Shown: positions 27,951 to 64,000 of the stretch, in pieces
Position numbering within the stretch: position 1 is the first letter of the stretch
Layout of the letters: each line of letters opens with the position of its first letter
Assembly (NCBI GenBank): GCA_964511085.1
Contig: CAZEDO010000003.1
Span: 3,883-67,882 of the forward strand
DNA: 64,000 nucleotides
Origin: an uncultured Lentimicrobiaceae bacterium
GTDB lineage: Bacteria; Bacteroidota; Bacteroidia; Bacteroidales; DASVHX01
Direction of reading: 5' to 3'
Notes under the pieces: model-generated
Told to the model about the DNA's origin: nothing
The model's database searches: none
What the model saw: the letters and a program-made list of their open reading frames with translations, nothing else
Translations under genes and position numbers: made by a program

Positions 27951-27965
27951 GATTTTAAATATTTA

Positions 27966-30900: not shown

Positions 30901-31481
30901 CTTACAAGTTTTAGAGCATTATTTGTAGTTCCTTTTACCAAAACTACTGCATATCCGTTAGTTGATGTATTTGTGGGATTTGCACTTGATATGGCAAGAA
31001 TAACAGCAGAACCATAATTTCCAGCATCAAAACCTGACAGAGCTGTACTCCTGTTTGTTTTCATATTAAACGTCCAGGTGACAGGACCAGGATTTGCATT
31101 AAGTGTAGTTGAAAACGGAGATGAAAATGTTGATAATGGTCCGGTAATATATGTTCTACCTGCAGCTGGAGTGGCACCAGGATACATCTGAACTACATAA
31201 TTTGCAGGGTCAACTGTAGCAGCATTAGTAATTGATATTCCTGCAGGACTGGCTGTACTGGCTGTTGTCCAGGTCATGGTTGGAGTTCCTCCATTAGTCA
31301 AAGGAGATACCCCAAGATCCCGGTTAAAGTTATCGGCAAACACAGTTGTTGGCTGGCTCCAACCTTTGATTGAAACCATTAAAACCACAAGCACAAAGAG
31401 TGCCGGGAATCGAAAGAGATTTTGTTTAGCCGCACTCAGGTTTCTCTTTGGCGCAGGCCTTGTTGTGTAAAGGTTTGTCAT
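27966..31481 (-). CDS. Giant T9SS cargo, adhesin-like (extended signal peptide, LamG-like N-domain, beta-helix-like repeat region, type-A T9SS CTD)
   Basis: 1171 aa. MTNLYTTRPA leader before the hydrophobic core. The C-terminus IEVYDITGRLL...LLVKVITIKGIATGKVFVN fits the T9SS type-A sorting domain. Paralog of 32054..36142. Confidence 0.85.
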   Translation of the reverse strand: MTNLYTTRPAPKRNLSAAKQNLFRFPALFVLVVLMVSIKGWSQPTTVFADNFNRDLGVSPLTNGGTPTMTWTTASTASPAGISITNAATVDPANYVVQMYPGATPAAGRTYITGPLSTFSSPFSTTLNANPGPVTWTFNMKTNRSTALSGFDAGNYGSAVILAISSANPTNTSTNGYAVVLVKGTTNNALKLVRFANGLVLNSNVTTIIGPSPDLGTMTRYASIKVLYTPSSNIWELYVRDDGSTTDPTDPATGTLTQVGTSTLNSNYTSTAMTSCGFLWNHSNGAGSSNKGMYDNFTVVVSPVLTPTISVTPSSLSNFNYVFGSLSSPSQPYSISGVNLDGSTVTVTGSTNYEVSLNNSDFYSFVNVPYSGATLSSTTIYVRLKLGLPTGNYNLENVGNAGGGASTPANVTCSGYVLGPPATYAWTGSTSNDWQVAGNWNPARSAPAINDILRFDNGGTYTITNVTTQTIAQLLVSGGSKITLQAPAATIITIAGTAGDDLTVSGSSSELNISGTFALSLSLNAGTNGLISSSMTVSGAAHVVKSADANSLVFASGSIFKATTGFTGSVFGTTSLNSVKFQSGSTYIQDAGSNPFGAGQPNSVLTFETGSLYKFTAASGGPSYSGRTYANFENDSPLTTQNNQGSSPFTCDNYTVTSGTVNWDFTAPMTIKGNIIVNTPAILTFGKATKTTNLTLNGSIAQTISGTGFMDFGALGSLIINNTAGITLSSQATLFNLTITSGAFKVASGASLITGGTVSGDVTVERNFTAGPNTWHLFCLPTSNSFMASPLFDGAYVDEYIENTGAWNRLVDVNTLNPKTGYSVKFPSGSHILDFTGTINSGDQTYSSLSYTTGAPGYGPGWHFIGNPFPSAVDLDLGIWTKTNLDGYVYVWDGNQYVCGPTTPSGYGTLTDNVVPAMQGFFVKANAANAELLVPQASRVHSSSFYKKAETSDNLMFLKVTGNGYEDKAVVAFNQSSTVGFDSDYDAYKLFGITEAPQLYSIIADNILTVNSLPSMEANSDVSLGFKAGAETTYTLTVSGIENFNTATPLLLEDVKTSTTQDLRQNPVYSFSAAPADTEHRFNLHFKNTSGIGETDTGMFSIYSNMHILYVRNPNGLQGTIEVYDITGRLLSSTRMTGNQIEKTDMVNYTGCLLVKVITIKGIATGKVFVN

Positions 31482-31544
31482 AGGTTCTGGTTTTTAATAT
31501 TTGCTTTATGTGAATATTTTCTTGATTTGACTTTTATAGCAGGG

Positions 31545-31612
31545 TAAAAATATAAACAAGTAATAGCAAAGAGGTTTCGAAATAGCTCAAATAGGTTTCC
31601 ACATTGTTCAAA
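31545..31612 (-). promoter_or_regulatory. Promoter/operator module C (GAAACC-N15-GAAACC-N20-TATTTTTA)
   Basis: Proximal repeat at 31573-31578, distal at 31594-31599. Box at 31545-31552 and ATTGTTCAAA half-palindrome at 31603-31612. Coordinates +/-2 nt. Confidence 0.65.
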
Positions 31613-31634
31613 CAACCTTAAATGATCAGCAAGC

Positions 31635-31674
31635 AAAAAAAGCATTTACCAGTATTACGCACTGGTAAATGCTT
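31635..31674 (-). terminator. Rho-independent terminator after miniprotein gene 31710..31946
   Basis: 14-bp stem AAGCATTTACCAGT / ACTGGTAAATGCTT with a 7-nt loop, followed by a T7 run on the minus strand. Confidence 0.8.
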
Positions 31675-31709
31675 CTTAATGAAATTATTAACAGACTTTT
31701 GATCTTTAG

Positions 31710-31946
31710 CTATACAATAGCTAAAGAAACTGTGCGCATTTGGTACAATTTTCTTAAGCCATAAGCTGCTCCCATTGCTACCATTATGACTAATCCACTA
31801 CCAATTGGAGCCCCACCGCCAACAGGGCCGTTACCGGCACCAGGAGTAGCACCACCGTTAGGATGAGGAGGAGACTGAGCAAGCATCAGTAAAGGCGCTG
31901 TAACTAAAAAAGCTGAGATAAGTAATATTCTGAAATTCCTTTTCAT
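31710..31946 (-). CDS. Gly/Pro-rich miniprotein, paralog of 27717..27950
   Basis: 78 aa. Composed of the signal peptide MKRNFRILLISAFLVTAPLLMLAQ, a G/P-rich linker and a GGGAPIGSGL motif. These are followed by the TM helix VIMVAMGAAYGL and the basic tail RKLYQMR. Confidence 0.7.
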   Translation of the reverse strand: MKRNFRILLISAFLVTAPLLMLAQSPPHPNGGATPGAGNGPVGGGAPIGSGLVIMVAMGAAYGLRKLYQMRTVSLAIV

Positions 31947-32053
31947 ATCTTTTTGTTTTAAATTCTGTTATTTATTTAAGTTCCAGGAGACGATTGCCGG
32001 GGGTGTCTCGATGAACATATCCAAAGTGTCACCCTGAGCGTAGTCGAAGGGTT

Positions 32054-43853: not shown

Positions 43854-45119
43854 TTAAAAACGATTTTTCCAGGCCCATAATCCAAGAGCAGGATTGGAAA
43901 TAAAATACACTTCTTCCCCATTCACATCATTAAATCCGTCCTTTAGCTCAGAAGGATTATATTTTTTCATCATTTCATTAAGATTTCCATAGTTAAAATT
44001 TACACTTTCGATCTCCTGTCGGGTAAGTTTGCCAGGACAATAAGTAACCCTGAATCTGTTTTCGTGGGATCCGTGAATAAGATGCGCGGCTGCACTTAAA
44101 TTTTCACGTAGCTCAAGATTATTCTTAACCAATTTTAATATTTCCGGGGTTGTGAGATAGCCATATTTACGAATCAAGCGGTCGATCTCCTTATCCTCTC
44201 CAAATTCCTTTAGCCCTGGTGCAAGAACTATTAATTCTCCTCCGTCAGCCAGAGCCATTCGGGTTCGATAGATACTTTTGTTTCCCAGCCATGTACTTTT
44301 AAACTCAGTAGGATCAAGGTAAACCACCACTTTCTTCAACGGCTCATCCAGTAATTCGAAGTTCACTTTAAGTGATAATTCAGCAGCTTTATCAAAACAC
44401 TCACTACTGTTGCCAATAAAAAGACCTTTAACCGCCATGTTGCCACTATGGCCATTTCCTATAACAGTATGTATATAAACGATTGGCAGATGTGCGGCGA
44501 AATGCTCTGATGCATAATTGAGAACCTTCCTTACCGGATTATCAGCCCGTCCCATAATTCGCTCCATTCCATAGGCAGCTCCCAGAAAATGGCTTTTATT
44601 TATCCCTTCTTTACCTCCTGTGCCAACAAATATATTTTTGTTGTAATTAGCCATGCCAATCACTTCGTGGGGAACAACCTGACCAATAGATAGGATGAGA
44701 TCAAAATTTCCTTCAACCAGAAGTTTGTTTACCTGCGCCGGCCACGAAAAATCAACCTGATCCTCTGAAACTTTTCGCAGATATTCAGCCGGCACTTCAC
44801 CCAGGGTAACAATATCGCTTCTCCAGTTGTGCACCCGAAAAAGTGAATGAGGTACTTTCCCAAACATACGGGTGAGTTCGGTTTCCGACATTGCGACATG
44901 TGTTCCAAGAGCCGGCAGGATATCTGTCACCGCATTTCCATAATATTGCCATGCCATTTCAGTAAGTATTCCAGCCCTGGAATGGAAACGCGTGAAATCC
45001 GGAGGCACAATTAAAACCTTACGCCGCGGCCCCAACTTATCAAGTGCTTCATATAGCCCTTTTCTAAGATCTTCAGAACTAAACTCCGAATCTACTGAAC
45101 CGTGGTCGTAATAAATCAT
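43854..45119 (-). CDS. LarA-like (DUF2088) putative nickel-pincer-dependent 2-hydroxyacid racemase/epimerase
   Basis: 421 aa. The N-terminal KVLIVPPDFTRFHSRAG pattern and overall length fit the lactate racemase N-terminal domain family. The substrate is not inferable. Confidence 0.6.
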   Translation of the reverse strand: MIYYDHGSVDSEFSSEDLRKGLYEALDKLGPRRKVLIVPPDFTRFHSRAGILTEMAWQYYGNAVTDILPALGTHVAMSETELTRMFGKVPHSLFRVHNWRSDIVTLGEVPAEYLRKVSEDQVDFSWPAQVNKLLVEGNFDLILSIGQVVPHEVIGMANYNKNIFVGTGGKEGINKSHFLGAAYGMERIMGRADNPVRKVLNYASEHFAAHLPIVYIHTVIGNGHSGNMAVKGLFIGNSSECFDKAAELSLKVNFELLDEPLKKVVVYLDPTEFKSTWLGNKSIYRTRMALADGGELIVLAPGLKEFGEDKEIDRLIRKYGYLTTPEILKLVKNNLELRENLSAAAHLIHGSHENRFRVTYCPGKLTRQEIESVNFNYGNLNEMMKKYNPSELKDGFNDVNGEEVYFISNPALGLWAWKNRF

Positions 45120-49489: not shown

Positions 49490-51001
49490 TTAGTGTTTTA
49501 CGAATTTACTTGTTATTGTTTTGTTTTCTCCCTTCAGGGTGACAAAATAGACGCCACCAGGTAAACTGTGAATATCAAAAGTTTTAATGGATTGCCTGAT
49601 ATCTTCAGTCATTAACCGGCGCCCAGTCAAATCAGATACAGTTAGAGAAGTGAAACAACGATCAGTCGATTGGACTGTTAATGTATTGTGAGCCGGATTT
49701 GGATAAACAGAAATCCTGGTATCAGAATTAACTTCTGAAACAGAAAGTCCGCTTACCTTTTTCCCTTTGAGTGAAAGGTCATCTATCCAGATACGTGTTA
49801 ATCCTTCGGCAGTTAATGTAGGTGTAAATATAACCTGAGTACTATCGTCTTCTCCAATAAAATAAGTAAATTTTTTCCATTCGGCAGTCATTTCCGAAGA
49901 GGTAATATTGCCTAATGTAATACCTATGCCACCTAGGACTTTCTTTTGAACTAACAGGTTTTCGACTCCATCAGGCTGGTCAATAGCAAGCCAGAAAGTG
50001 AGCGTATCTGATTTAGTGTACTTTGCAGTATTAAGAAATCCGATTTTATCAGGTTGCCCTCTCATAAACTTCAAAGCAGCCAGACCGAAAAATTCTCCAT
50101 GATTTCCCCCTCCTCCAACTACCGTATTTGTTGTGTAAGTATAACCACCACGCCAACCCGGTAATGGCATTACTCCATCACCCGTATTTACAAACCCGAC
50201 TTTATAAATATAATCTGAAACGGTGAATACGATCTTGTAGTTTTTAGTAACAGTTCCGTCCTGGGAAGTAACAGCAACAGTACCTGTTCTGTCGGCTTCA
50301 TAACCTCTGAGATTTGTAGGATTAGTTATTGTAATTGTAGCACCTGGATTATTAGGTGTACCAGCCATTTCTATATGTTCCACACTATATGGAACTTCCA
50401 TTATGTAATCTAAATTTGCGGCAGTAAAACCATCAATACTGATGCCATTATATGTAAGATCGGTTAGGGTGGCATCATTTGGCTCTATTGCCATTTTGGT
50501 AACACTTATATCATCAATATAACACAGGCCGAGCGAAGCTGTTCCATTAACCGAAGCTGCATGAAACCTAAGATATATTTGAGTAGCTGCATCGTTTACT
50601 TGTATATTAACAAGCTGAAATATAGAATCATTTTCCATATTGCAAGGATCTTTTCCAATTTCTGTCCAGGCTACCTGATCGTATGATTTTTCGATCATCA
50701 GGTGAAAGTCGCTCAATGTACTTGTATCCCTGACTTTAACATAAAATTGCAATGTGGCAGCGGTATTTAATGCTTTGATCATTAAAAACGATTCGTTAGG
50801 CTTTAATTTTGCAGAATATGTGCCAGGATTCAAATCTTCATTATTATGAGTTAATGAATAAGTAACATTCGTTGCAATCCAGCCTACGGGCGGCGCATTC
50901 AAAACAAAGGTTTCCTGAAAATGATAGATCTGCGCGACACTAATTCCGGAGAAAGATAGCGAAAGCGTGATAATTGACAGAATGAGTAGATTTTTTTTCA
51001 T
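49490..51001 (-). CDS. T9SS cargo with MAM/choice-of-anchor-J-like domains and a cadherin-like beta-sandwich
   Basis: 503 aa with a signal peptide. LCYIDDISV and IWIDDLSL motifs, DATLTDLTYNGISIDGF cadherin-like domain. C-terminal CTD ISVYPNPAHNTLTV...GVYFVTLKGENKTITSKFVKH. Confidence 0.8.
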   Translation of the reverse strand: MKKNLLILSIITLSLSFSGISVAQIYHFQETFVLNAPPVGWIATNVTYSLTHNNEDLNPGTYSAKLKPNESFLMIKALNTAATLQFYVKVRDTSTLSDFHLMIEKSYDQVAWTEIGKDPCNMENDSIFQLVNIQVNDAATQIYLRFHAASVNGTASLGLCYIDDISVTKMAIEPNDATLTDLTYNGISIDGFTAANLDYIMEVPYSVEHIEMAGTPNNPGATITITNPTNLRGYEADRTGTVAVTSQDGTVTKNYKIVFTVSDYIYKVGFVNTGDGVMPLPGWRGGYTYTTNTVVGGGGNHGEFFGLAALKFMRGQPDKIGFLNTAKYTKSDTLTFWLAIDQPDGVENLLVQKKVLGGIGITLGNITSSEMTAEWKKFTYFIGEDDSTQVIFTPTLTAEGLTRIWIDDLSLKGKKVSGLSVSEVNSDTRISVYPNPAHNTLTVQSTDRCFTSLTVSDLTGRRLMTEDIRQSIKTFDIHSLPGGVYFVTLKGENKTITSKFVKH

Positions 51002-51407: not shown

Positions 51408-53570
51408 TTAGAAGATACAGACCTTTCTTGTTTTCATTCCTTCTACAGTACTTACCATTATTAAATAAAAACCTTTTTCCCAACCTGATACATTAATAAC
51501 TAATTCGTTTGAAGGCGATTTCAGGTTGGCAATTTTTTGACCTGCAAGGTTATAAACCTCAATTACCTCTATTTCAACTGTAGAAATAATACAGATCCTA
51601 TCTGATGTGATTGTTGGGTAAACATGAATCCCATCATAGCTTATATTGCCAATGCCAACATTTGAATAAAAATTGGCAACAAGATTATGGTTCTCTGAAA
51701 CATTCGTTAATGTTAATTCTATATTGGTACCCAGAATAACTCCACCTTCTGTCCAATTCAAAAAAACATAATTCGGATTTGCAATAGCCGTAAGCGTTAT
51801 GCTTCCGCCAAGTGGCACATTGCCGGTTCCTGTTATTATTCCTCCTTCACTGGGGTTTGCTGTTGCTGATACTGTGAATACATCAACACTCTCAATAAAG
51901 TTCCCCAATATAGTATGGTCGGTAATTACATTAGTTAGAGTAAGTACTGGATCTGTTCCTAAGATGGTTCCGTTTTCGCTCCAATTTTCAAATATAAATC
52001 CTGTATTTGCAAAAGCATTTAGTGTAATATCAGAGCCATAACTAATGGAGCTGGAACCAGTAATTGTTCCACCTTCAGGAGGAGTAGGTAAGCCTGTAAC
52101 TGTAAGAGTTTGTAAAACAAACTGGGCAACAACATCATGATTAGATGAAACATTCGTAATTACTAAAACAGAATTCGATCCAATTACATTCCCTCCTTCT
52201 GTCCATTGTGCAAAAACGTAACCTGTATTCTGAAAGGCCGTGAGTGTAGCAGTCCCACCATAGGCAACAGTTCCGGTTCCTGTAATAGTGCCACCATCAG
52301 AAGGCGAGGCTGTAGCAGTTATCTGAAATGAGGCTGGTACAAAATTGGCAACTAATGATCTGTTACCACTAACAAGGAATGTATAAACAGAGTTTGAACT
52401 TACTACAGAGCCTCCGTCAGTCCAGTTTGCAAACATATAACCTGTTGCAGCAGAAGCAGTAACTGTGGCATTAAACCCTTCACCATAAACCCCGCCTCCA
52501 GAAACAGTTCCGGTAGCTGCCGGTAAAACTGCAAGATCAACAGTATAATATGCGTAAGCATGGTTAACTGTATAGGTTTTTGTTGTTGTTCCATTTTCAG
52601 CCGTTACCAGAATACTTGAAATTCCAGGAATTGAAGCAGGAGGTGTAATCACTACTGAGGCCGCCCAATCTGTTGGGGTAGCCAAAACAATTACGGATGT
52701 CTGACCTGCAGGAACAGTATCATTATAAGTAACAACGTCAGGACTAAAACCGGTAACGCTCAAAGCATCAACTTTAATGTTACTCAAAGTAGCAATATTG
52801 CTTATATTCAGTACTTGTTGCCAGGTTTTGGCAACCCTGACCCCATCTACAATCACAGTGGGTGAAGATCCGGTTGTTCCCTGGCGTAAAAGTACCGATC
52901 CAATCCCAACATCAGAGGCAGTAATATCAGAGGCAACAGCTGAAGGAGAAGGTTCAGGACTTCCAATCACCGGATTTACAAAAAGACATGTAATATCGTT
53001 GGTTGTTCCTTCAATAATCTCATATTTTATTACGAGCAAATAAGTAGTGTTTAAGCTATAAATAAACGGTGTATAATCAGCTGATGCAGGTGCCGTGATA
53101 GCACCTTTAGATATACCAAAGGCCAAATTATTTGAACCATCAACCTTTGCATATACTCTTCCTCTGAAGGTTGTATTTGTCGGAGAAGTTGGTGATTCCT
53201 TGAACGAAATGAATGCATCTCCTGTAGTGGCTGAAGTTACTTTAGCCAGGCAGGCCATATATATTAAGCTTCCTGGAAGGGTTTGCTTGGTAAACCCTCT
53301 GAATAAATCCTGCCCTGTAGTACCAACAGCAGCAGCATTTCCGATTCCTGAACAAGGAAATCCGGCATGTGACAGACCTTCGCTGACAACGAAAATTGGA
53401 TTAATCAAACTACTAGTACCCGACTGGATCAGCCAATTATGCCAGGCAAGAGAATCGCCGGAAGGATAGTCGAAATTATCGAACATCAACACCTGTCCCC
53501 TGCCGGTTATTGAAATGCCTGCCAAAACAGACAAAGCAATTAAAAAATTACGAATGGTATTAGTTTTCAT
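51408..53570 (-). CDS. T9SS cargo: LamG-like N-domain, cadherin-like domain, 4-5 InlB-B/Listeria-Bacteroides-type repeats, type-A CTD
   Basis: 720 aa. The N-domain is homologous to 15560..18385 and 23342..27460. Repeats carry GYVFAQWTEGG / GFIFENWSENG / NYVFLNWTEGG. CTD is IHVYPTITSDRI...FYLIMVSTVEGMKTRKVCIF. Confidence 0.8.
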   Translation of the reverse strand: MKTNTIRNFLIALSVLAGISITGRGQVLMFDNFDYPSGDSLAWHNWLIQSGTSSLINPIFVVSEGLSHAGFPCSGIGNAAAVGTTGQDLFRGFTKQTLPGSLIYMACLAKVTSATTGDAFISFKESPTSPTNTTFRGRVYAKVDGSNNLAFGISKGAITAPASADYTPFIYSLNTTYLLVIKYEIIEGTTNDITCLFVNPVIGSPEPSPSAVASDITASDVGIGSVLLRQGTTGSSPTVIVDGVRVAKTWQQVLNISNIATLSNIKVDALSVTGFSPDVVTYNDTVPAGQTSVIVLATPTDWAASVVITPPASIPGISSILVTAENGTTTKTYTVNHAYAYYTVDLAVLPAATGTVSGGGVYGEGFNATVTASAATGYMFANWTDGGSVVSSNSVYTFLVSGNRSLVANFVPASFQITATASPSDGGTITGTGTVAYGGTATLTAFQNTGYVFAQWTEGGNVIGSNSVLVITNVSSNHDVVAQFVLQTLTVTGLPTPPEGGTITGSSSISYGSDITLNAFANTGFIFENWSENGTILGTDPVLTLTNVITDHTILGNFIESVDVFTVSATANPSEGGIITGTGNVPLGGSITLTAIANPNYVFLNWTEGGVILGTNIELTLTNVSENHNLVANFYSNVGIGNISYDGIHVYPTITSDRICIISTVEIEVIEVYNLAGQKIANLKSPSNELVINVSGWEKGFYLIMVSTVEGMKTRKVCIF

Positions 53571-53749: not shown

Positions 53750-53804
53750 CTAAATTAGAATATGAAGCAGTGAATCGGGTTTCTTTACAGTTCAAATAGG
53801 TTTC
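53750..53804 (-). promoter_or_regulatory. Promoter/operator module E (GAAACC-N15-GAAACC-N20-TAATTTAG)
   Basis: Proximal repeat at 53778-53783 and distal at 53799-53804. Box at 53750-53757. The implied leader is about 175 nt. It lies about 175 nt downstream of the HTCS stop. Confidence 0.6.
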
Positions 53805-53980
53805 TGATTAAATCTATCGTGATAAAATAGGACTTTCCAGGGTGAATTTACAAAAATGGATTCATACCTTAGAGGGGTTATCCTTTCTCAAAAGAACTTA
53901 TTATTCGAATAATCATCAATTTTCAGATTATATACAATTGTAGTCCACCTCGTGATCCAGTTTGTTTCAGGTACTATATA

Positions 53981-56900
53981 TTACGCGTTCATCCTGTATT
54001 CGCTGGGTGTTTTGCTAAACTGGCGTTTAAAAGCTGTACTGAAATGTTTTGAATTAGCGAATCCCGACAGGTATGCAATCTCAGAAATAGGAAAGTCTGA
54101 TTCCAGCAGCATCCTGGCAGCCTTTCTCAGCTTTACAATACGCACAAAATCCTGGATAGAATTACCTGTAAGTGCCTTAAGTTTCCTGTATAAAACAGAA
54201 CGACTCATGGCCATTTCCCTACTAAGCTTTGTAACATCCAGAGTATCAGAATCACTATCGTTCTCAATTAAGCTTATGATATTCACAAGGAATTGTTCAT
54301 CAAGTTTGTTACTTACTACTTCAGAAGGAATAAAATTCGGTTGGCCGGTAAATTTGTTCCTTAGCAATTTCCTGCTGGTTATCAGATTTTCGATAGTTAC
54401 CTGCAAAAGATCAGGATTATATGGCTTTGATATGTATGCATCTGCCCCGGTTTTAATACCAATAATTTGATTTTCGTCTCCACTTTTTGCAGTAAGCAAC
54501 AGAACAGGAATATGGGAAGTTAGAATATCCTCTTTAATATTTTGACAAAACTCAATTCCATCCATTCCGGGCATCATAATATCTGATATGATAATATCAG
54601 GCAAATACTGCCTGGCTATTTCAAGACCTCCTGTTCCATTAGCCGCAGTGAGAACCCTGAAGGCTGGCCTGAATTTTTCAGCTATTACCCTACAGACCTG
54701 AGGATTATCATCAACAACAAGCAAAATAGGCATTTTGTCATCAGGAGGCAAAGCGCCTGAATCTGAAACAGGCATATCAACAATTTCTCCTGAGAACCCC
54801 TGATAGTCCATTTTAAGGTTGAAATTGACTTCTTCCTTTATTTCTGCATCACCTAAATGATCTTTCCCTATTGGCAAGCTAACCAAAAAAGAAGAGCCTT
54901 TCCCAATCTCACTTTCAGCTTTTATTTCACCATGATGCAGTTCAACCAGTCTTTTGCAGTATGCCAGTCCAATGCCGGAACTATCTATTTTACGATCGAC
55001 CCCCATAGTTTTTGACACGTGATAGAACCTATCAAATATCATTATTATATCTTCCGGCGCAATTCCAATTCCTGAATCCCGGATAGCAATTTCAATATAA
55101 TTTCCACGTTCATTGGCACTAATGTTCTCCTTTATATCCTTCACCCTTGTCTGAATCATAATTGATCCCCCTTCATCAGTGTATTTGAAAGCATTGGAGA
55201 GAAGGTTAAAAATGATTTTTTCCATCTTTTCCGCATCAAACCAAATTTCCGGAATGGCTCCTTTGATGCTGAGTTCAAAATTGATATTTTTCTTATTGGC
55301 TAAATCATCGAAGCTTTCTTTGATACCCTGGAGTAATTGAACAATATTGCCTTTTGTCGCTTTCAACTTCATAAGACCACTTTCGGCTTTCCGAAATTCA
55401 AGCAATTGATTAATGAGGAATAACAATCTTTTGGCGTTCCTTTCAATATTGCTTAATGTTTCTGCTTTCTTTTCGGAACCAGCAGTTTTTAAATTATCAA
55501 GATGACCCAGTATTAATGTTAACGGAGTTTTGAACTCATGCGAAATATTAGTAAAGAAACCTAGTTTCAACTGATTCAATTCTTCTAATTGTTCTTTTTC
55601 TATCCGCTCGAGAAGAAGTTGCTGCTTTACCTGTACCCATGAGGTATTTACCCTAATGAACAAAACTAAGGAACAAATAATGATAATAGCATAAATTGTG
55701 TAAGCCCACCAGGACTTCCACCATGGTGGTAAAACTCTTATCTGAATAACTGCAGGTTCAACGCTGGCAACTCCATCGTTGTTAACTGCCTTTACCATAA
55801 AAGTGTACAATCCTGGTCGCAGGCTGGCATAATTGGCAGAGCGCACTTCGCGAAAATCAGTCCATGCTTCATCAACTCCTTTCATTAAAAAGGAATATTG
55901 ATATTTACCGTTATTGATAAACCCAAGTGCTGAAAAGTGAATTTCAAAATTAGATTGAGCAAAATCCAAAGTCAGCTTCTTAAGTAGAAATAATTGTTTC
56001 TCAAGAGGGCTGTTTGGCTCTCCGACTTTCACCAGTTTATTTGAAATGTAGAGGTCAGTAAAGATGACTTTGGGAGGATGCGAATTTATCACAAGGTTTC
56101 CTGGGTAAAAGGCATTAAATCCATTGCTGCCACCAAAATAAATCTTGCCATCCCTGGTTTTGAGTGAAGCTTTCTGGTTAAATTCATTTCCTTGAAGGCC
56201 ATCAGCAACAGTATATATTTTAATCTTCCTCTGCATTGGATCATACCACACTAATCCTTTGTTTGTAGATAGCCAGAAATTATTATTGCCATCCTGCACT
56301 ATAGCATTCACAACATTATCAGGCAATCCTTCTCTAGATGTTATTGAAGTAAACTTTCCATCAGTCTGATCAAGAATACTCAATCCGCCACCCTCAGTCC
56401 CTGCCCAAATCCTCCCGTCATTTGCAATCAGAATTGAGAGAATCCTGTTATTGGCAAGGGTTGTGGTATCTGTATTTGAATGTGTATAAACTAAAAAATC
56501 TTCCGTTTCGGGATTGAAACGGTCAAGACCATGGTTTGTTCCCAGCCATATATTCCCCTGCTTGTCATTACATAGTACCTTGATCGTATTGCTGGATAAA
56601 TGCGAGTTGGAGGAAGTGTATCTTTTGAGATGACCTGTATTTCGGTCCAGAAGGTAAATCCCTCCTAAACTGGCAATGCAGAGTTTGTTACTACTGGTTT
56701 CGGTAATTGCATATACACTGGCTTTGTCAAGTGAACCAGACACATCATCAGGGTGGCTGAATTTTCGGAAGGCATTTTTTTTTCTATCAAAAATGCTTAT
56801 CCCACCACCAAATGTACCAATCCATAGGCTACCCTCATGATCTTCGTAAATTGCCAGAACTGTATTTGAAGATAAGGAATTGCTGGCAGACCTGTTGAAA

Positions 56901-58105
56901 GTAAAGGATTTGAATTTGCCGGTAATAGGATTGTAAAGGTTAAGCCCTCCGAGTGTTCCTATCCAGATATTCCCTTCCCGATCCTGAAAAAAAGTTCTGA
57001 TATGATTGTCTGATAAGCTCTCTTTATCATTGACCTGGTGCTTGACGGGTAGGAATTTCCAGTCGAATTCGCTATAATAATTTATACCACCAACATAATT
57101 GCCCACCCAAAGCCCTTTGTACCTATCCACAAAAATTTCGTACACCGAGTTGTTGCTTATGGTATAAGGGTTATTCGGATCACTCATGCATGGAGATATG
57201 AATTTGGATACAGGATCATAAATATTGAGCCCACCACCATCGGTTGCAATCATAATCCGGCCATCAGGAATACGCTCAATATCCAGTATCTGATCATTAG
57301 AAAGTGTCGAATTAGTTGATGTAATATTTTCAACCTGTCGGGTTTTCTTATTATACCTGATAATTCCGGAAGTGGTACCCAACCATATAACACTCTGATT
57401 TTCATTAAATAAACAGAGCACTCTTGCATCAATAATACCGCTTATTGAATAAACCGGTTTGACTTTGCCTGTTACCTGGTTGTATGTAAATAGCCCACCA
57501 AGTGTACCCAACCATAATAAAGTGTCGTTTTCAAAATAAATGGTATTGATCCTTTCTATTCTAAAGCCGGAAGGCACCTTCTGCTGAAGGTTAACACTCA
57601 CTAATTTCCTGTTTTGATCATCATAGCGGTATAAGTCTTCTCCATGTGTACCTGCCCAAATCCGTCCTTTCGAATCTTCTGCAATGGCTTGAATGTTATC
57701 GCGGTCAATAGAGCCTGGGCTGCCTGTACTGATTGTATATGTATCAAAGTCATCAGTCTCGGTGTTATATCGGCTAAGGCCTCCTTCCTGTGTTCCAATC
57801 CACATTCTACCCCTTGAGTCCTTAAATATTGTATTGATGTAAGCATTTCTTAAGCCACTATTGTTATTATCATATATTTTGAAGGAATACCCATCGAACC
57901 GGTTTAAGCCACTCCGTGTTCCGATCCACATAAAACCATAATCATCTTCATTAATAGAATATACAGAGTTGTGCGATAATCCTTCATTTGTAGTTAGATG
58001 ACGAAAAAAGAGGCTCTTCTCCTGCCCCGTGGAAAAGAGTGGGCATAACACTAAGAAAAGAAGAGCCGCAACTACTGCTGGTGCTATTTTTCCAGTTATA
58101 CGCAT
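53981..58105 (-). CDS. Hybrid two-component system regulator (beta-propeller/Y_Y_Y sensor, HisKA, HATPase, REC, AraC-type HTH)
   Basis: 1374 aa. Contains repeated propeller blades (WIGT..GL.R..), a TM helix and the H-box FFTNISHEFKTPLTLI. Also has ATPase DSGIGI, REC LLVVDDN...SDIMMPGMDG and the AraC HTH SEIAYLSGFANSKHFSTAFKRQFSKTPSEYR. Confidence 0.92.
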   Translation of the reverse strand: MRITGKIAPAVVAALLFLVLCPLFSTGQEKSLFFRHLTTNEGLSHNSVYSINEDDYGFMWIGTRSGLNRFDGYSFKIYDNNNSGLRNAYINTIFKDSRGRMWIGTQEGGLSRYNTETDDFDTYTISTGSPGSIDRDNIQAIAEDSKGRIWAGTHGEDLYRYDDQNRKLVSVNLQQKVPSGFRIERINTIYFENDTLLWLGTLGGLFTYNQVTGKVKPVYSISGIIDARVLCLFNENQSVIWLGTTSGIIRYNKKTRQVENITSTNSTLSNDQILDIERIPDGRIMIATDGGGLNIYDPVSKFISPCMSDPNNPYTISNNSVYEIFVDRYKGLWVGNYVGGINYYSEFDWKFLPVKHQVNDKESLSDNHIRTFFQDREGNIWIGTLGGLNLYNPITGKFKSFTFNRSASNSLSSNTVLAIYEDHEGSLWIGTFGGGISIFDRKKNAFRKFSHPDDVSGSLDKASVYAITETSSNKLCIASLGGIYLLDRNTGHLKRYTSSNSHLSSNTIKVLCNDKQGNIWLGTNHGLDRFNPETEDFLVYTHSNTDTTTLANNRILSILIANDGRIWAGTEGGGLSILDQTDGKFTSITSREGLPDNVVNAIVQDGNNNFWLSTNKGLVWYDPMQRKIKIYTVADGLQGNEFNQKASLKTRDGKIYFGGSNGFNAFYPGNLVINSHPPKVIFTDLYISNKLVKVGEPNSPLEKQLFLLKKLTLDFAQSNFEIHFSALGFINNGKYQYSFLMKGVDEAWTDFREVRSANYASLRPGLYTFMVKAVNNDGVASVEPAVIQIRVLPPWWKSWWAYTIYAIIIICSLVLFIRVNTSWVQVKQQLLLERIEKEQLEELNQLKLGFFTNISHEFKTPLTLILGHLDNLKTAGSEKKAETLSNIERNAKRLLFLINQLLEFRKAESGLMKLKATKGNIVQLLQGIKESFDDLANKKNINFELSIKGAIPEIWFDAEKMEKIIFNLLSNAFKYTDEGGSIMIQTRVKDIKENISANERGNYIEIAIRDSGIGIAPEDIIMIFDRFYHVSKTMGVDRKIDSSGIGLAYCKRLVELHHGEIKAESEIGKGSSFLVSLPIGKDHLGDAEIKEEVNFNLKMDYQGFSGEIVDMPVSDSGALPPDDKMPILLVVDDNPQVCRVIAEKFRPAFRVLTAANGTGGLEIARQYLPDIIISDIMMPGMDGIEFCQNIKEDILTSHIPVLLLTAKSGDENQIIGIKTGADAYISKPYNPDLLQVTIENLITSRKLLRNKFTGQPNFIPSEVVSNKLDEQFLVNIISLIENDSDSDTLDVTKLSREMAMSRSVLYRKLKALTGNSIQDFVRIVKLRKAARMLLESDFPISEIAYLSGFANSKHFSTAFKRQFSKTPSEYRMNA

Positions 58106-58132
58106 CGAATTTTTTTTTGAAAGTAGATATAA

Positions 58133-59545
58133 TTATCCAATTACCTCTTTCTTTTTGAAATATTTGATCAACTTGTAGCGGTTCATGTTGAGTAAACGCA
58201 TGTGGTTAATCAGCGGATTGTAATACTGGTAGTTGTTATCAACAATTCCTTTGTTCGAATCGCTGTTCGACGGATCGGCAGTTTTATCTGTTGGATCGTT
58301 ATCCATATACCTGAACCAATGCCAGCCAACACAGTTATTCATTTGCAATAATTTCAGGCAGAAATTCTCATAAAAAACTCCCCGGTCATTCTGTGTTTTC
58401 ACCCTCCATCCTGCACCTGACACATTCCCCAAGCCCGAATCGTCACCTTTGGTATAAAACTCTGTAATAAGAATAGGCCTATCAGTCCAGGCACTCCATT
58501 CATCAAAGTGTTTCTGAGATGGCTCCCATTGCCCGTAGTAATTAATAGAAATTATATCAGCATATCTACCAGCTGCTTTAATAATGCCTTCATTATGCTT
58601 CGGTCTGCCATGCAGCCTGCTTCCAAGAAACATATGTGCAGGATCATGCATTCTAATCGCAGATGACACTACCTTGTAGTAGCGATCGGCCACAAATCCA
58701 AGGAAAGAATTTCGCAAGGAATCATTAATCTGATCAGGTGATTTACCCGATAATTTTAACCAATACAACGCTGCCATGTAATTAGAATCATTTTCATTAC
58801 CCACAGACAGGTATTCGTCAAGGATTTTTTCACTGAATTGGAGTTCATTGTCCGAGAAATGCCCCAGGAGGTTTGGATCATTATTAGTTTCCTCTGTTTT
58901 TATTGCCTGCTCATTACAGAAGGATTCAAATTCAGGATCAAACACAGCAAATGACATACCTTTCATATTTTGCGATTTCCTTTGTTTTTCATAATTTGCA
59001 TAAAAATTCCATATCATTGTATAGCTCAAGGATGTACTGTTTTGTTTGTTACTGTATTGAACCATCGGCACATCTGACCAGCACCCGACTCCGTTAAAAC
59101 CCATATTGATCAAATCGTGATCTGTTTGAACAATCCATTTTTCAACGGTATTAAATTTCGAAATAAGCGCTTTCTCATTCCTGTCAGAGTTGCCTGGCCT
59201 CACTCCACTTACTCCTACATGCCAGCATTTATATCCTTCAGGATCTATTATCCACCACCTGTTTTCTATCTTTTTAGCATAAAAAAAACCTGTTGCCTTC
59301 ATTTTTAATTCAATGTCGCCACCGTATTTGCTGAAATTCTCATCGGCAACAGACTTATAACCAGGCAACAAATCAATAGTTACTGCTTTACATTTCGTCC
59401 AGTCGGAATATGAAACCTTTCCATTTTTCTTACTCCATTTTTTCGCATCTACTACTATTGAATCTGAATTCCCCGCAAGCTTGTTCGTTCTGCATGAACC
59501 CAACACCAAAAAGCATAAAAGAAAAACAACAATCTTCCCGTACAT
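58133..59545 (-). CDS. Lipoprotein, clan GH-A (TIM-barrel) glycoside hydrolase candidate
   Basis: Lipobox LVLGSC. HFSDNE (putative acid/base NE) and ILITEFY (putative nucleophile). A GWHWFRYMDN motif is remembered from GH50-like or agarase-annotated Bacteroides proteins. The family is not assigned. Confidence 0.55.
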   Translation of the reverse strand: MYGKIVVFLLCFLVLGSCRTNKLAGNSDSIVVDAKKWSKKNGKVSYSDWTKCKAVTIDLLPGYKSVADENFSKYGGDIELKMKATGFFYAKKIENRWWIIDPEGYKCWHVGVSGVRPGNSDRNEKALISKFNTVEKWIVQTDHDLINMGFNGVGCWSDVPMVQYSNKQNSTSLSYTMIWNFYANYEKQRKSQNMKGMSFAVFDPEFESFCNEQAIKTEETNNDPNLLGHFSDNELQFSEKILDEYLSVGNENDSNYMAALYWLKLSGKSPDQINDSLRNSFLGFVADRYYKVVSSAIRMHDPAHMFLGSRLHGRPKHNEGIIKAAGRYADIISINYYGQWEPSQKHFDEWSAWTDRPILITEFYTKGDDSGLGNVSGAGWRVKTQNDRGVFYENFCLKLLQMNNCVGWHWFRYMDNDPTDKTADPSNSDSNKGIVDNNYQYYNPLINHMRLLNMNRYKLIKYFKKKEVIG

Positions 59546-59569
59546 AATATTTTTTTTTGTTAGGTAGTG

Positions 59570-61930
59570 TTATTGAACGAGTATTATAGTCTGTCGTGTT
59601 AACTTATTTTCAGAAGTTAGCCTCAGCAAATAAGCTCCGGGGATAAGCATGAGGTTTGAAAGAGGTATTGACATTTTCAGCCCCCCCCCCGACATGTGAA
59701 ATTCTTTTTCAAATACAAGTCTGGTGTCTATCGAATTCAATGTAACACGTACATTCGTGTTTGGAAAATCATCAGCTTCAATTATAACAAACTCTGTAGC
59801 TGGAATTGGATATACCTTTATAGTATTGGTCAATTTCAATTCCGAAATTCCAATTGGACCTGTATATTCAAAAGCCCCTCTGTCAATGATTGAATAAGTC
59901 GGGACTACATTCCCCTCTATATCCTTAACAAGGCTTGCGTTAACTACCGTGCCAGAATTTATGGCAGGCGATGAACTTTTTAACCTAAACCCAACAAGAG
60001 AATCAATCCCATGCCCAGGTTGATCCGGCGATTCAAATTGAGGATCGAGGTCTATTCTATGAGCATCGGCTGGCACATTTGCTATACCCGAACCAAAGAA
60101 AATATTGTAATCGAACTCATTGCCGGTACTTGCGCCCAGATCAACTGATGCACCTGCTCCCATTACCTGAAAAATATTGTTATAGTACTTAGTATTAGAT
60201 GAATAACCTTCCCAGCTTTTATGCCGGATCAGGTCAATATTTGTCAAAGAAGCTTTGCTATAAATAGTGTTATTATAGATACTGCTATTGGTGGCAGAAC
60301 CCGAAGTACGGATGACATGATCAGCATTATTCGCCATAACATTGTAGCGAATAACAGTACCGTCATTAAAATTACTGCCAGGGCCTCCTGTTAAAAGAAT
60401 TGCCCCATATCCGTTGTCGTGGCTGTAATTATACTGAATAGTTGTATACTTCGAATTATAATCACTGTCGAATCCTCCGGCATCTTCGTCACCACTGTTA
60501 TACTTTGTAAAACAGGCTTCATTATATTGCCATAGCGCATAATTGGTGTTGAAACTGAAAGAGGCATTCCCCGAACCTTTTATCGAACAATTGTTAAAAA
60601 GATTGTTTTCCATTATTGGCTTGAAGGCAACCCGCACAATAAGCGCATTGGCTCCGGTGCGCTCAAATGTATTATTCCTGAAAATCATATTTGTGCTCGG
60701 TGTCCAGTTCCCATCGGTTGAGAGGGTTCGGTCGCTCCATGATGAACGGTTGGAAATTCCGGTACGGTCCAGATCGTGGATATAACAGTCTTCAACAAGT
60801 AGTGTATCAAAATATGTAGGTGTTGCGGAGCCGGTTACATCAAAAAATATCCCACCATTATTTTTAGATGTTTCACCATCCATACTTCCATTTACATCCG
60901 AAATTTCCAGACGTCGAAAAATTAGATGCCGCACAACTCCCATGTCGTCTGCCTGCACATACAAGGCTCTTCTAAAATCAACAGTATCGCCATGATTCGT
61001 AATAGAAAGATCCTGAACTTCTATATATTTTTGGTTGGTCAATTGCATAGTGTTTTGGACTAAACCCTGTCCTTCTATTTTAGGATTAGCCCCTTCGCCG
61101 TATTTACCAACACAGATTGGTTTGCCAGCTACACCACTGCCTTTGAAACTGAGTTGTCCCTGCCAGACAACTCCTGCTTTTAATAGGATTGAATCCCCTG
61201 GTTCAAAAGTAGTTGCACTGATATTTGCAAGGCTTTTCCAAGCCTGGGAAGGGTTTGCAGCCGAATTATCGTCATTACCGGCATTAAAATCGACATAATA
61301 AGCACCGGTACGGTGAAAAGGTACCGGCCCTTCAACTAATTCCAATAAAGGTTGGTTCCCCGACGAATTCTCTTTCGAATGCCACCGTGTGTCTTTTGTA
61401 GAAACTGCACCTCCCACATCTTTAAGTATGAAAGCCACGTTTACTCGTCCTTCACTTACTGCCTGATTTAAATAACTTGTCACATCCCACGCATAGTAAC
61501 CTTCTCCGGCCACAAGCACTATATCGCCTATAAATACACCCGGAGGCCGGGTATTGCCTGTAAGCGATTCCTCCTGCCATGCAGTATCGGTAGAATATAT
61601 CTGCGTTCTTTTTGTCTCAAGCACTTTCCCGTATAATTTTACCTGGGCCGAAACAAAAGTCGTGTCGAATGAACCAATATGGAATTTGATATATGTTTCG
61701 CGTGTAAACTCCTCAGAAGATACGCTCTTCCTTGTTTTGAGACTGTCAGGATCTATTATCCCATAAGGGTCGTTTGCCTTTAATCCGCCGGCATAAATGT
61801 AGCAATCGTCATGAGCTGGAAATACAAATTGAGCTGCTGCCTGCTGGCCGAATCCAAAGATTAACAAAAGCAGATAGATACATGAACCTGCCCTGGTAAA
61901 AGAAGTAAAGGAATTTTCGTTTTTATGCAT
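59570..61930 (-). CDS. T9SS cargo enzyme: DNRLRE-like domain plus right-handed parallel beta-helix (polysaccharide lyase/hydrolase-like)
   Basis: Start moved to MHKNENS (ATG at 61930) to avoid overlap with susD. The core is homologous to 18589..22029 (AWKSLANISATTFEPGDSILLKAGVVWQGQL versus AWKTLTKVNATTFTANNRILFKAGGVWTGKL). CTD is IKVYPIPATEFVI...GAYLLRLTSENKLTRQTIILVQ. Confidence 0.8.
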   Translation of the reverse strand: MHKNENSFTSFTRAGSCIYLLLLIFGFGQQAAAQFVFPAHDDCYIYAGGLKANDPYGIIDPDSLKTRKSVSSEEFTRETYIKFHIGSFDTTFVSAQVKLYGKVLETKRTQIYSTDTAWQEESLTGNTRPPGVFIGDIVLVAGEGYYAWDVTSYLNQAVSEGRVNVAFILKDVGGAVSTKDTRWHSKENSSGNQPLLELVEGPVPFHRTGAYYVDFNAGNDDNSAANPSQAWKSLANISATTFEPGDSILLKAGVVWQGQLSFKGSGVAGKPICVGKYGEGANPKIEGQGLVQNTMQLTNQKYIEVQDLSITNHGDTVDFRRALYVQADDMGVVRHLIFRRLEISDVNGSMDGETSKNNGGIFFDVTGSATPTYFDTLLVEDCYIHDLDRTGISNRSSWSDRTLSTDGNWTPSTNMIFRNNTFERTGANALIVRVAFKPIMENNLFNNCSIKGSGNASFSFNTNYALWQYNEACFTKYNSGDEDAGGFDSDYNSKYTTIQYNYSHDNGYGAILLTGGPGSNFNDGTVIRYNVMANNADHVIRTSGSATNSSIYNNTIYSKASLTNIDLIRHKSWEGYSSNTKYYNNIFQVMGAGASVDLGASTGNEFDYNIFFGSGIANVPADAHRIDLDPQFESPDQPGHGIDSLVGFRLKSSSPAINSGTVVNASLVKDIEGNVVPTYSIIDRGAFEYTGPIGISELKLTNTIKVYPIPATEFVIIEADDFPNTNVRVTLNSIDTRLVFEKEFHMSGGGLKMSIPLSNLMLIPGAYLLRLTSENKLTRQTIILVQ
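59681..59690 (-). repeat. G10 homopolymer (coding strand) inside the T9SS CTD coding region
   Basis: C10 on the plus strand. It encodes S-GGG in ...EFHMSGGGLKMSI, 36 codons before the stop. Confidence 0.85.
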
Positions 61931-61995
61931 TTTATAAATTCGAAGTTTCGATTTAATATTATTGAAATTAACCATCACCTGTGCGGCATGAGCCA

Positions 61996-63630
61996 TTAGT
62001 AATATCCGAAATTTTGCGGGAATCCTCCCATAGCATCTATTTCAGATTGTGGTATCGGCCAACGAATATGGAAATCCTTAATATTTGAACGGGATGAGTA
62101 CCAGGCCGGATCAGTAGCTATAATCCCCCTGAACATTGTTGTACCTCCGGATGCCCTTACCCTCTCTACCAGAAGTCCCAGCCTTTTTAAGAAGAACCAG
62201 CGCCTTCCCTCAAAAGCCAATTCACGTGCATGTTCTTCCAGCAGCGTTTCTTCATCCATGGTAGTGAGGATTTGATTCGGGTCTTCTGCCGATATCCGTT
62301 TCTTTCTCAACTCGTTGAGGTAATAAAGAGCCTGACCTGTATTTCCCATCCGCAGATTTGCTTCTGCAGCCATGAGGTAAACTTCTGAAAACCTGTAGAT
62401 ATAAATATTATTAAACGAACGCGTTGTATTAGCGATCTTTACATAATCAAAGTACTTTTTGCAACCGACGCTTGCATTCTTGAAAAAATTTGTACCGGTT
62501 AACATCGGCCCCTGTCCGTATTTTAAGGTATCTCCAAACTTATATGTTTGATTTGTAAAGTCAAATGTCTCATTATTATACGTGTAGTAATGCTGCCACC
62601 ATGCATCCCATCGCTTATCGTATTTCGGATTATACAGGCTCAGAAGGTATTCATTTGGAAAAACCCTGGCCCATCCGTAACCACCAAATTCCGATACCTG
62701 GCTTGTGCCTGGAACCTGCTTGTAGTCAGCAGTAAAAACAAGAGGAAGCCTATGGCCTGAAGGCGCTCCGGTAGAAGAGCTAACATCGGCACCGCCGACA
62801 GCAAACTCATCAAATTGCATTACATAGATACCTTCGGATGTGTTGTTCCTTGCATCTTTTGTAAAAACAAGTGAAGGATCAATAAGTGCATAAGGCCCAT
62901 CGGTTATTAGTTTTTCAGAAAGCGCAGCAGCTGTCGGCCAATCCTGCCTCCATAAGGCAACATCAATTCTCAGGAATAAGGCAGCGCCAAGACCAAATTG
63001 TCCCGGTCTTGCAGTCCAATCGTTTCCATAATAACTAATAGCTGAATCAAGATCAGCAATAATTACTTTATACACTTCATCCTGGGTAGCTACGGAATAT
63101 ATCCTGTTTGCTATGTTATCTACGGTTGTAGGTTCAAGGTTAAGCCATATATTATCAAATTTACGTACAAGCCAGAAAAATGAATTAGCACGGTGAATAT
63201 AAGCTTCGCGAAGTATCTTTTTTTTATCTGCTTCCGGCACATCTGCAGCCATGCCAAAAGTGATTATACTATTAGCCCTTTCAATAATCCTGTATTCTTT
63301 CTTCCACCAACTACTAACAACGCCCTGGGTGGGGAAATTCAGGTCAGGGCGATAGCGTGCGACGCATTGATTAAGTGCAGCCCGCATGAAATCGATATCG
63401 GTGCCACAATCACCTAATACCACATCAAAATCGCTGCTTTCGTTATCATCTGCCTGGGCACGTTCAAGAGAATACAGCCCATTGACTGCAGATTGCAAAC
63501 CATCTTTTGTATTGAACAGGAAGTCGGTTGTTACTGAAGACGGGTTTTCTTCTACGAGATAATCTTTGCAGCCCCATAAACCAGTTAAGAGGACAAGCAA
63601 CAACAGGAAATATACTTTATTGTCTTTCAT
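61996..63630 (-). CDS. susD: SusD/RagB family nutrient-binding outer-membrane lipoprotein
   Basis: 544 aa. Lipobox LTGLWGC and a TPR-like SusD fold pattern. Lies immediately downstream of a SusC-like gene. Confidence 0.88.
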   Translation of the reverse strand: MKDNKVYFLLLLVLLTGLWGCKDYLVEENPSSVTTDFLFNTKDGLQSAVNGLYSLERAQADDNESSDFDVVLGDCGTDIDFMRAALNQCVARYRPDLNFPTQGVVSSWWKKEYRIIERANSIITFGMAADVPEADKKKILREAYIHRANSFFWLVRKFDNIWLNLEPTTVDNIANRIYSVATQDEVYKVIIADLDSAISYYGNDWTARPGQFGLGAALFLRIDVALWRQDWPTAAALSEKLITDGPYALIDPSLVFTKDARNNTSEGIYVMQFDEFAVGGADVSSSTGAPSGHRLPLVFTADYKQVPGTSQVSEFGGYGWARVFPNEYLLSLYNPKYDKRWDAWWQHYYTYNNETFDFTNQTYKFGDTLKYGQGPMLTGTNFFKNASVGCKKYFDYVKIANTTRSFNNIYIYRFSEVYLMAAEANLRMGNTGQALYYLNELRKKRISAEDPNQILTTMDEETLLEEHARELAFEGRRWFFLKRLGLLVERVRASGGTTMFRGIIATDPAWYSSRSNIKDFHIRWPIPQSEIDAMGGFPQNFGYY

Positions 63631-63652
63631 TGTTTATTGTATTAAGCAGTCA

Positions 63653-64000
63653 TTAAAAATTCACGTTTACACCAAAGGTATAGTTAACGGTTTCAGGATA
63701 GGAATCTGGGTTTGTTTCCGGGCTCACCGAAAGGTATTTAGTAATCGTAATAAGGTTATCGCCCCGCAGATATACCCTTACTCTGCCAATGTTTGCTGCC
63801 TTTGCCCATTGTTTCGGCAACGTGTAAGCAAGTGTCAGATTCGTAAGCCTCACATAGGAAGCATCCTGATAATCGAGCGTACCTCGGTACTCTGAAGTTA
63901 CCGTTTCGTGTGGCCTGAAAGTGGAGTTTGAAGGATTTTCCGGCGTCCAGTAATCACGTTTAATACCGTTTTTATAACCTTGAAGTGAGCCGCCATAATT
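63653..64000 (-). CDS. susC: SusC/RagA family TonB-dependent outer-membrane transporter (3' end only; gene continues beyond the window)
   Basis: The reading frame is open to the window edge. The C-terminal beta-barrel strands end ...YTFGVNVNF with a terminal Phe. Followed 22 nt later by susD. Confidence 0.8.
   Translation of the reverse strand, partial: NYGGSLQGYKNGIKRDYWTPENPSNSTFRPHETVTSEYRGTLDYQDASYVRLTNLTLAYTLPKQWAKAANIGRVRVYLRGDNLITITKYLSVSPETNPDSYPETVNYTFGVNVNF

Follow-up and report, generated by a model that had tools for sequence, protein, structure and literature searches.

Phase variation in the Bacteroidota is known mainly from invertible promoters and DNA inversion. Here we describe a candidate of a different type, an uninterrupted run of ten guanines (the G10 tract) in an enzyme gene from an uncultured Lentimicrobiaceae bacterium. 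It lies in a stretch of 64,000 nucleotides (nt) of contig CAZEDO010000003.1 (assembly GCA_964511085.1, positions 3,883 to 67,882), to which we refer as the window. The gene forms part of a polysaccharide utilisation locus (PUL), and its product ends in a putative C-terminal sorting domain (CTD) of a type IX secretion system (T9SS). Our preferred reading, held tentatively and with a confidence that falls just short of even, is that the tract is a genuine slippage-prone homopolymer in the gene of a secreted enzyme, located within the β4-β5 loop of the CTD, where it would act as a mutational ON/OFF switch of export.

Among the closest described systems, the C-terminally phase-variable genes of Helicobacter canadensis carry poly-G tracts of at least 10 residues near the 3' end of the coding sequence, and length changes alter or shorten the C-terminus, the bulk of the protein being synthesised all the same (Snyder et al. 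2010, PMC2823697). Contingency loci such as hmbR, hpuAB and nalP of Neisseria and those of Campylobacter contain G/C homopolymers of at least 8 residues in open reading frames (ORFs) of surface or secreted proteins, and slipped-strand mispairing moves them between ON and OFF frames; in the accounts of these loci drawn on here, the tracts usually lie near the 5' end and abolish the protein, and they are shared between strains and form part of phasomes that span the genome. The poly-A tract of Listeria monocytogenes inlA provides natural one-base homopolymer alleles, in-frame or frameshifted, of a surface-protein gene (Orsi et al. 2010, PMC2831843). It comprises A6/A7 at the 5' end, yields an 8-amino-acid (aa) peptide and has a measured reversion frequency, and some lineages carry a stabilised, interrupted tract (PMC2831843). 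With regard to secretion, the CTD in Porphyromonas gingivalis holds the export signal in its final strands or its final 22 residues, and the removal of even a few C-terminal residues strands the cargo in the periplasm, as found for truncations of RgpB and HBP35 (PMC4804311; see also PMC11285876).

The locus described here resembles that of H. canadensis in having a poly-G tract of at least 10 residues near the 3' end of the gene, after which the reading frames differ solely in their C-terminal tail. In contrast, the affected C-terminus is here a defined secretion or sorting domain, so that the predicted effect is on localisation. H. canadensis is moreover an epsilonproteobacterial pathogen with dozens of such tracts, in which population-level heterogeneity was demonstrated by sequencing, whereas the present host is an environmental member of the Bacteroidales for which two assembly alleles are available. 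Compared with the Neisseria and Campylobacter loci, which it resembles in tract composition and gene type, the tract is 3'-terminal, lineage-specific and nearly alone in 64 kb. As in inlA, natural alleles differ by one base, G10 and G11 in this case, at the 3' end rather than the 5' end. The G9 and G11 alleles would be natural equivalents of the RgpB and HBP35 truncations, which are laboratory mutants in a distant genus. The catalytic β-helix finds its best fold matches in the GH136 lacto-N-biosidases LnbX, BsaX and TnX, from which the enzyme differs by an N-terminal CBM96 module, a T9SS CTD and its location in a SusC/SusD PUL with a GH50-like enzyme. A literature search found no paper joining phase variation, homopolymeric tracts and type IX secretion, and no natural hypermutable CTD tract described there.

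The features on which the argument rests are the following.

59681..59690, minus strand: the poly-G tract, G10 on the coding strand and C10 on the plus strand, consisting of the third base of Ser747 and the codons of Gly748-750 (numbering of the 786-aa product).
59570..61996, minus strand: the enzyme gene, with CBM96, GH136-like β-helix, choice-of-anchor-Q and T9SS CTD segments; the product has 808 aa if translation starts at the first ATG and 786 aa if it starts at the ATG at 61930.
59573..59818, minus strand: the T9SS type A CTD, aa 705-786, modelled as seven β strands.
59573..59680, minus strand: the 36 codons that a gain or loss of one base in the tract removes or replaces, covering β5, β6 and β7 and including PGAYLLRL and TIILVQ.

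On the plus strand, the surroundings of the C10 tract read ...TTTTCAG CCCCCCCCCC GACATGTGAAATTC..., and the coding-strand codons GAA TTT CAC ATG TCG GGG GGG GGG CTG AAA specify EFHMSGGGLK. The tract begins at nucleotide 2307 of the 2427-nt ORF and lies 36 codons before the stop codon (59570-59572). It is the sole G/C run of at least 10 in the window, where 0.012 such runs would be expected under an independent and identically distributed model and 0.09 under a first-order Markov model, at a GC content of 40.1%. The runners-up are a G9 at 18557-18565 and a G7 at 8970-8976. Codon usage adds further to the rarity of the run: GGG is the rarest glycine codon (12.6% of Gly codons), TCG is a rare serine codon (11.2% of Ser codons), the probability of GGG GGG GGG given three glycines is 0.002, and the other Gly3 or Gly4 peptides of the window are all encoded by interrupted codons (15 of 15).

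As to the G9 run, it is intergenic (G9 on the plus strand, C9 on the minus strand), 24 nt past the stop of a CBM96/fn3/dockerin-like gene (18589-22029, minus strand) and upstream of a 941-aa Big_5/cadherin-like gene (15560-18385, minus strand), about 172-180 nt from its start.

The coding consequences of a length change were simulated. The three reading frames that can follow the tract yield products of 808, 795 and 772 aa. A G9 allele ends in ...HMSGGG followed at once by TGA; a G11 allele exchanges the last 36 aa for a 23-aa tail, AENVNTSFKPHAYPRSLFAEANF, which has no recognisable feature; and a G13 allele keeps the frame and adds one glycine. The tract is a G/C repeat longer than the 8-9 uninterrupted residues taken as the lower limit for phase-variable loci, situated within an ORF whose product is altered by a change in its length. 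The first-pass annotation of the window had described a G10 encoding S-GGG 36 codons before the stop as the longest G/C run, with an immediate stop upon loss of one G and an unrelated tail upon gain of one; the sequence, the codon reading and the simulated alleles agree on all of these points, and the natural G11 allele described below agrees on the last, except that the tail has 23 aa and not 25.

The position of the tract within the CTD was examined in an AlphaFold2 model of the enzyme built from 40 homologues (mean predicted local distance difference test score, pLDDT, 86.4), which was also compared with the PDB by Foldseek. The pLDDT ranges from 77 to 90 across the CTD region (705-785), where DSSP assigns strands at 705-707, 714-719, 726-733, 738-745, 751-756, 765-773 and 776-785, as predicted for the seven-strand Ig-like β-sandwich that T9SS type A cargo carries at its extreme C-terminus. 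In this model Met746-Ser747-Gly748-Gly750 form the loop of the β4-β5 hairpin, and the tract accordingly falls within the CTD, as had been proposed, with a change of one base removing β5-β7. No other part of the CTD varies as much among the 40 homologues, whether in sequence or in length (SGRN, SGNS, TNNG, LNGS, DGQ-, NTG-- and others), whereas YP.PA, PG.Y.L and the terminal hydrophobic strand are conserved around this loop. Since the loop is hypervariable, a poly-Gly segment is probably tolerated structurally at this position. The profile matches to the CTD are marginal: TIGR04183 scores 23.6 bits on the isolated last 86 aa (cut-off 23) and 19.0 on the whole protein, and PF18962, with 25.7 bits, stays under its cut-off of 27. 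Most close homologues have a precomputed PF18962 match.

A full-length protein search retrieved one near-identical protein, P0001 (MFZ4706307.1), from an independent metagenome-assembled genome (MAG), GCA_049317905.1. It is 795 aa long, and its C-terminus, ...EFHMSGGGAENVNTSFKPQAYPRSLFAEANF / ...SGGGAENVNTSFKPQAYPRSLFAEANF, is the predicted +1 tail; no PF18962 match is on record for it, and the same holds for a few intact homologues such as P0004. The contig concerned carries G11 at the tract. Over window positions 53764-64000 it is 99.971% identical to the window; the 10,238 aligned columns contain two mismatches and a single gap, the latter being the extra G. Tract length thus differs between near-identical genomes, in the form of two alleles at the level of assemblies. 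The G10/G11 difference is the sole indel in about 66.7 kb of cross-assembly alignment, in which the window was compared with seven loci from three to four other assemblies and one Logan contig. The first-pass annotation had noted that a single invariant length everywhere, or a tract interrupted in all relatives with no frameshifted alleles, would speak against a phase-variable switch; the 99.97%-identical MAG departs from the former, and for the latter, distant relatives are indeed interrupted, yet a frameshifted G11 allele exists.

Three single-nucleotide polymorphisms (SNPs) in the gene accompany the comparison.

59649, minus strand: a T>G SNP (coding strand) of the G11 MAG, which replaces Met by Arg when read in the G10 frame and His by Gln when read in the +1 frame.
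59615, minus strand: a T>G SNP (coding strand) of ERZ4201038, which turns ACT into ACG, a synonymous change when read in the G10 frame.
61786, minus strand: SNP in the G11 MAG, GGA>AGA; Gly49Arg (G49R) at a residue invariant in the 40 homologues.

Look-ups of neighbouring proteins identified further assemblies of the same organism, namely ERZ4201038, GCA_037134235.1, ERZ4223250 and SRR12676970, and a SusD look-up added one more sample, ERZ1426841. The T9 runs at 56775, 58110 and 59550 are unchanged wherever they are covered (one locus, L014, spans all three and another, L012, two), and the G9 run at 18557-18565 has the same length in ERZ4201038 and GCA_037134235.1 (spanned by L017 and L018). 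Generic long-read homopolymer noise was rejected as a cause of the G10/G11 difference, since every assembly that covers the T9 and G9 runs shows them at one length and the alignments contain no second indel.

Beyond these, the 90% protein cluster has two members, P0001 and the window's own 808-aa product (P0121), and no full-length G9, G12 or G13 allele is on record in the protein collection or in this cluster. An exact-product look-up did not find the window's 808-aa and 941-aa proteins in the contig index. A DNA pattern scan of JGI metagenomes with both flanks and a variable gap gave 0 matches and no further alleles, and a protein-guided metagenome scan returned relatives at 57-66% identity alone, again without further alleles. 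Among GTDB representative genomes only orthologues of at most 71% identity were found, the species itself being without a representative. A search with the last 200 aa returned one protein of 56% identity; it missed P0001 and the 57-76% homologues and is uninformative. Separately, this search indicates that the word-index step can overlook clear relatives when queries are short.

Two further observations arise from the same alignments. At window positions 44838-44982, 16 clustered substitutions distinguish the window from contig 127 of GCA_049317905.1 within a Lar_N-family gene (43854-45119); they fall mostly at multiples of 3, which suggests third-codon positions, and the cluster resembles a short inter-strain recombination tract. 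At 55171-55203, five substitutions lie within the first 46 nt of ERZ4223250 NODE_20022, probably a contig-end artefact or a strain junction.

The mechanism that we propose would begin with strand slippage during replication, which alters the run by one G. With G10, or likewise G13 or G7, the frame would be kept and the complete seven-strand CTD made, and Sec would carry the enzyme over the inner membrane and the T9SS over the outer one. With G11, which occurs naturally, or G9, which is predicted, the signal peptide, CBM96 and catalytic β-helix would be kept and β5-β7 of the CTD lost. A frameshift at the tract is predicted to abolish T9SS export of the enzyme, a claim well grounded by analogy because published CTD truncations leave the cargo in the periplasm. 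An enzyme without β5-β7 would thereby escape T9SS recognition and be retained in the periplasm or degraded. On this view the tract would be a heritable switch, reversible in principle, that acts on export and leaves synthesis untouched. The tract and its rarity, the G10 and G11 alleles with their coding consequences and the place in the modelled CTD are observed; the slippage rate, the reversibility, the loss of secretion and any benefit are what we infer here. The best reading is an export ON/OFF site that is real and reversible in principle, and whose adaptive value is unproven and possibly nil.

Several observations weigh against this reading, some of a general nature and others in favour of a particular alternative. 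Two alleles are known, both from metagenome-derived assemblies. The profile scores of the CTD sit at threshold. No gene for T9SS machinery (PorK-N, Sov/SprA, PorU/V) was recognised among the scanned ORFs of the window, a scan that included no dedicated test for them. In the window, the assemblies and the relatives compared, the tract was found neither to be kept across strains or species nor to be part of a wider variable set.

The first alternative is that the tract has the same true length everywhere and that the difference is a sequencing or assembly artefact, resulting from homopolymer miscalling or from stutter of the library polymerase chain reaction in low-coverage short-read assemblies. 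We regard this as unlikely, although it keeps appreciable weight. Contig NODE_10334 of ERZ4201038 (k-mer coverage 4.6) begins at 59667, only 14 nt 3' of the tract, and a break at this place shows that the site is technically difficult; it is compatible with length heterogeneity or with poor reads. Other contigs of the organism have a coverage of just 3.7-3.8. Illumina indel error climbs about 1000-fold with homopolymer length (PMC3334598). It reaches about 2% in homopolymers (PMC3334598), which we judge too low to flip a consensus easily. The G11 MAG was moreover assembled straight through the tract. Its contigs 52 and 127 share an exact overlap of 55 nt at 53764-53818, intergenic between the genes for the PUL regulator and a 720-aa CTD protein, which suggests a de Bruijn short-read assembly with k=55, and from a graph assembler of this kind one expects the path taken to be that of the majority k-mers. 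The agreement of the G9 run and of the three T9 runs in all assemblies covering them also argues against an artefact, the difference being confined to the one site most prone to slippage.

The substitutions near the tract can be viewed in the same manner. The T>G changes at 59649 and 59615, one in each of two assemblies, both fall less than 75 nt 3' of the tract, where the background is 1-2 differences per 10 kb, and the dominant Illumina substitution error is A/T to G/C (PMC3334598). However, neither is preceded by G in the way that is usual for Illumina hot spots. They may have arisen by repeat-associated mutagenesis, under relaxed constraint or as sequencing error associated with poly-G. 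At a distance of 2.1 kb, the G11 copy of the gene also has a separate non-synonymous change. By a rough estimate, a neutral G10 tract would be expected to differ between strains at a divergence of about 2 sites per 10 kb. On balance, the G10/G11 length difference is probably biological.

With respect to the 55-nt overlap at 53764-53818, we also observe that it suggests a possible branch point of the assembly graph, and hence strain heterogeneity in the sample of the G11 MAG.

The second alternative accepts the length difference as real and regards it as one-way gene decay, in which a chance tract arose in an unconstrained loop and the frameshift was the first or easiest inactivating change in the lineage of GCA_049317905.1, which would have ceased to need the enzyme. 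This too is unlikely in our view, though far from negligible. The tract is absent in all orthologues, which have at most 76% identity: the closest of them (76%) reads TCC GGA AGA AAC there, and AAT AAC GGC, AAC GGT AGT or GAT GGT GCC occur in others. Related Bacteroidales MAGs, compared over about 124 kb of orthologous loci, have no G/C run of at least 8. Judged from these sequences, the tract is young and specific to this species-level lineage. There is also no wider set of variable tracts, given that the only other long G/C run of the window, the G9 at 18557, is invariant across three assemblies and that the relatives have none. Within the gene, the OFF allele, G11, carries G49R at a column invariant in 40 homologues, which fits one-way decay better than a maintained switch. 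Both SNPs in the shared 10.2 kb fall in this 2.4-kb gene (P about 0.05) and both are non-synonymous in the original frame, the pattern expected of relaxed selection on an inactivated gene. Nevertheless, very small numbers lie behind this pattern. The G11 ORF of 795 aa has no further stop or indel, although it bears G49R and, in the frame of the CTD, the Met>Arg change, and the triple GGG is unbroken by synonymous change in both alleles. A G11 run would return to G10 about as readily as it formed, which makes some physical reversibility almost inescapable.

A stronger form of the switch would be a selected contingency locus in a free-living polysaccharide degrader, in which slips between G10 and G9 or G11 toggle a T9SS-exported "public good" and a CTD-less form that is retained or not deployed. 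We consider this improbable. The first-pass annotation had put forward a contingency locus; the tract itself, its place in the CTD, the coding effects and the length variation lend it partial support, whereas the lineage-specific nature of the tract, the invariant G9 and the G49R change in the OFF allele speak against it. The remaining alternative, recoding at the level of expression by slippage of RNA polymerase or the ribosome on the G run, so that each allele would give a mix of CTD-bearing and CTD-less enzyme, is highly improbable, since transcriptional slippage on long homopolymers, though known in bacteria, is documented chiefly for A/T runs (of at least 9), rG:dC hybrids are more stable and the +1 tail has no recognisable function.

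The remaining features of the gene and its neighbourhood are the following.

61832..61930, minus strand: a probable Sec signal peptide, MHKNENSF...GQQAAA-QFVF by sequence inspection, with a helix at 2-31 in the model.
61337..61825, minus strand: the CBM96/DNRLRE carbohydrate-binding module, aa 36-198, with PF24517 at 83.8 bits, NF033679, and fold matches to 8wab and 7vbo.
59861..61303, minus strand: the right-handed β-helix catalytic core, about aa 210-690, with a fold nearest to the GH136 lacto-N-biosidases.
58133..59545, minus strand: a GH50-like glycoside hydrolase of 470 aa, 24 nt downstream of the enzyme stop, matching PDB 5t3b (E 3.9e-73) and GH50 β-agarases (E 1e-34).
61996..63630, minus strand: a SusD-family protein (PF07980 and PF14322), directly upstream and overlapping the first ATG of the enzyme ORF.
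53981..58105, minus strand: the hybrid two-component sensor/regulator (HTCS) of the PUL, 1374 aa, with Reg_prop, Y_Y_Y, HisKA, HATPase_c, Response_reg and HTH_AraC (precomputed Pfam).

Translation from 61930 (786 aa) yields a more convincing signal peptide than translation from the first ATG (808 aa). Read by eye, a hydrophobic N-terminal stretch is followed by AAA-Q, and cleavage there would expose a glutamine, compatible with the Q-rule for signal-peptide cleavage in Bacteroidetes (PMC5837995). The catalytic core matched 7v6i, 7v6m and 5gqc in Foldseek, with E values of 3e-21 to 3e-23, TM scores of 0.67-0.70 on the target and 22-23% identity, and its similarity to the β-helix of LnbX is strong at the fold level alone, in a predicted structure. 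No specific Pfam family recognises the core, Beta_helix reaching 22.4 bits, which is under its cut-off, and a choice-of-anchor-Q segment was also detected in the enzyme (Pfam/NCBIfam). CBM96 modules are known to bind alginate or chondroitin sulfate.

The genes are arranged in the order SusC-SusD-enzyme-GH50-like-HTCS, and the identical order, including the GH50-like neighbour, is present in the closest relative (L021, 76% protein identity). The 470-aa GH50-like protein has no Pfam match, and its similarity covers the C-terminal catalytic part of the GH50 β-agarases. A location of the tract within an internal Bacteroidetes-type promoter for this downstream gene was rejected, TAnnTTTG and TAnnTTT both being absent from the coding strand at 59760-59501. 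Domain, fold and neighbourhood evidence agree with the earlier description of a PUL-encoded β-helix enzyme with a T9SS type A CTD. The neighbouring genes at 49490-51001 and 51408-53570 likewise carry Por_Secre_tail, an indication that the host organism has a T9SS. The wider window contains genes of uronate utilisation, namely UxaC, PfkB, GH2 and an MFS transporter.

Elsewhere in the window, at about 27700-32000 (L017 84-320 and 4080-4313), two small genes of 77-78 aa show faint PID_CTERM matches, and between them lies a gene for a 1171-aa protein without a Pfam domain (27966-31481).

If the length variation is real, a single hypermutable run of bases can uncouple an enzyme from its secretion system while synthesis continues, which would constitute a switch of localisation rather than of expression. 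The locus also illustrates that homopolymers create apparent pseudogenes in the annotation of MAGs: the G11 copy is labelled just "DUF7594 domain-containing protein", with no CTD match recorded. Should the tract be a selected contingency locus, it would represent the first phase variation of a T9SS sorting signal by a simple sequence repeat, and a rare case of phase variation by such repeats in the Bacteroidota. Producers and non-producers of an extracellular enzyme would then coexist within one clone, which would bear on the dynamics of public goods and cheaters in polysaccharide-degrading communities.

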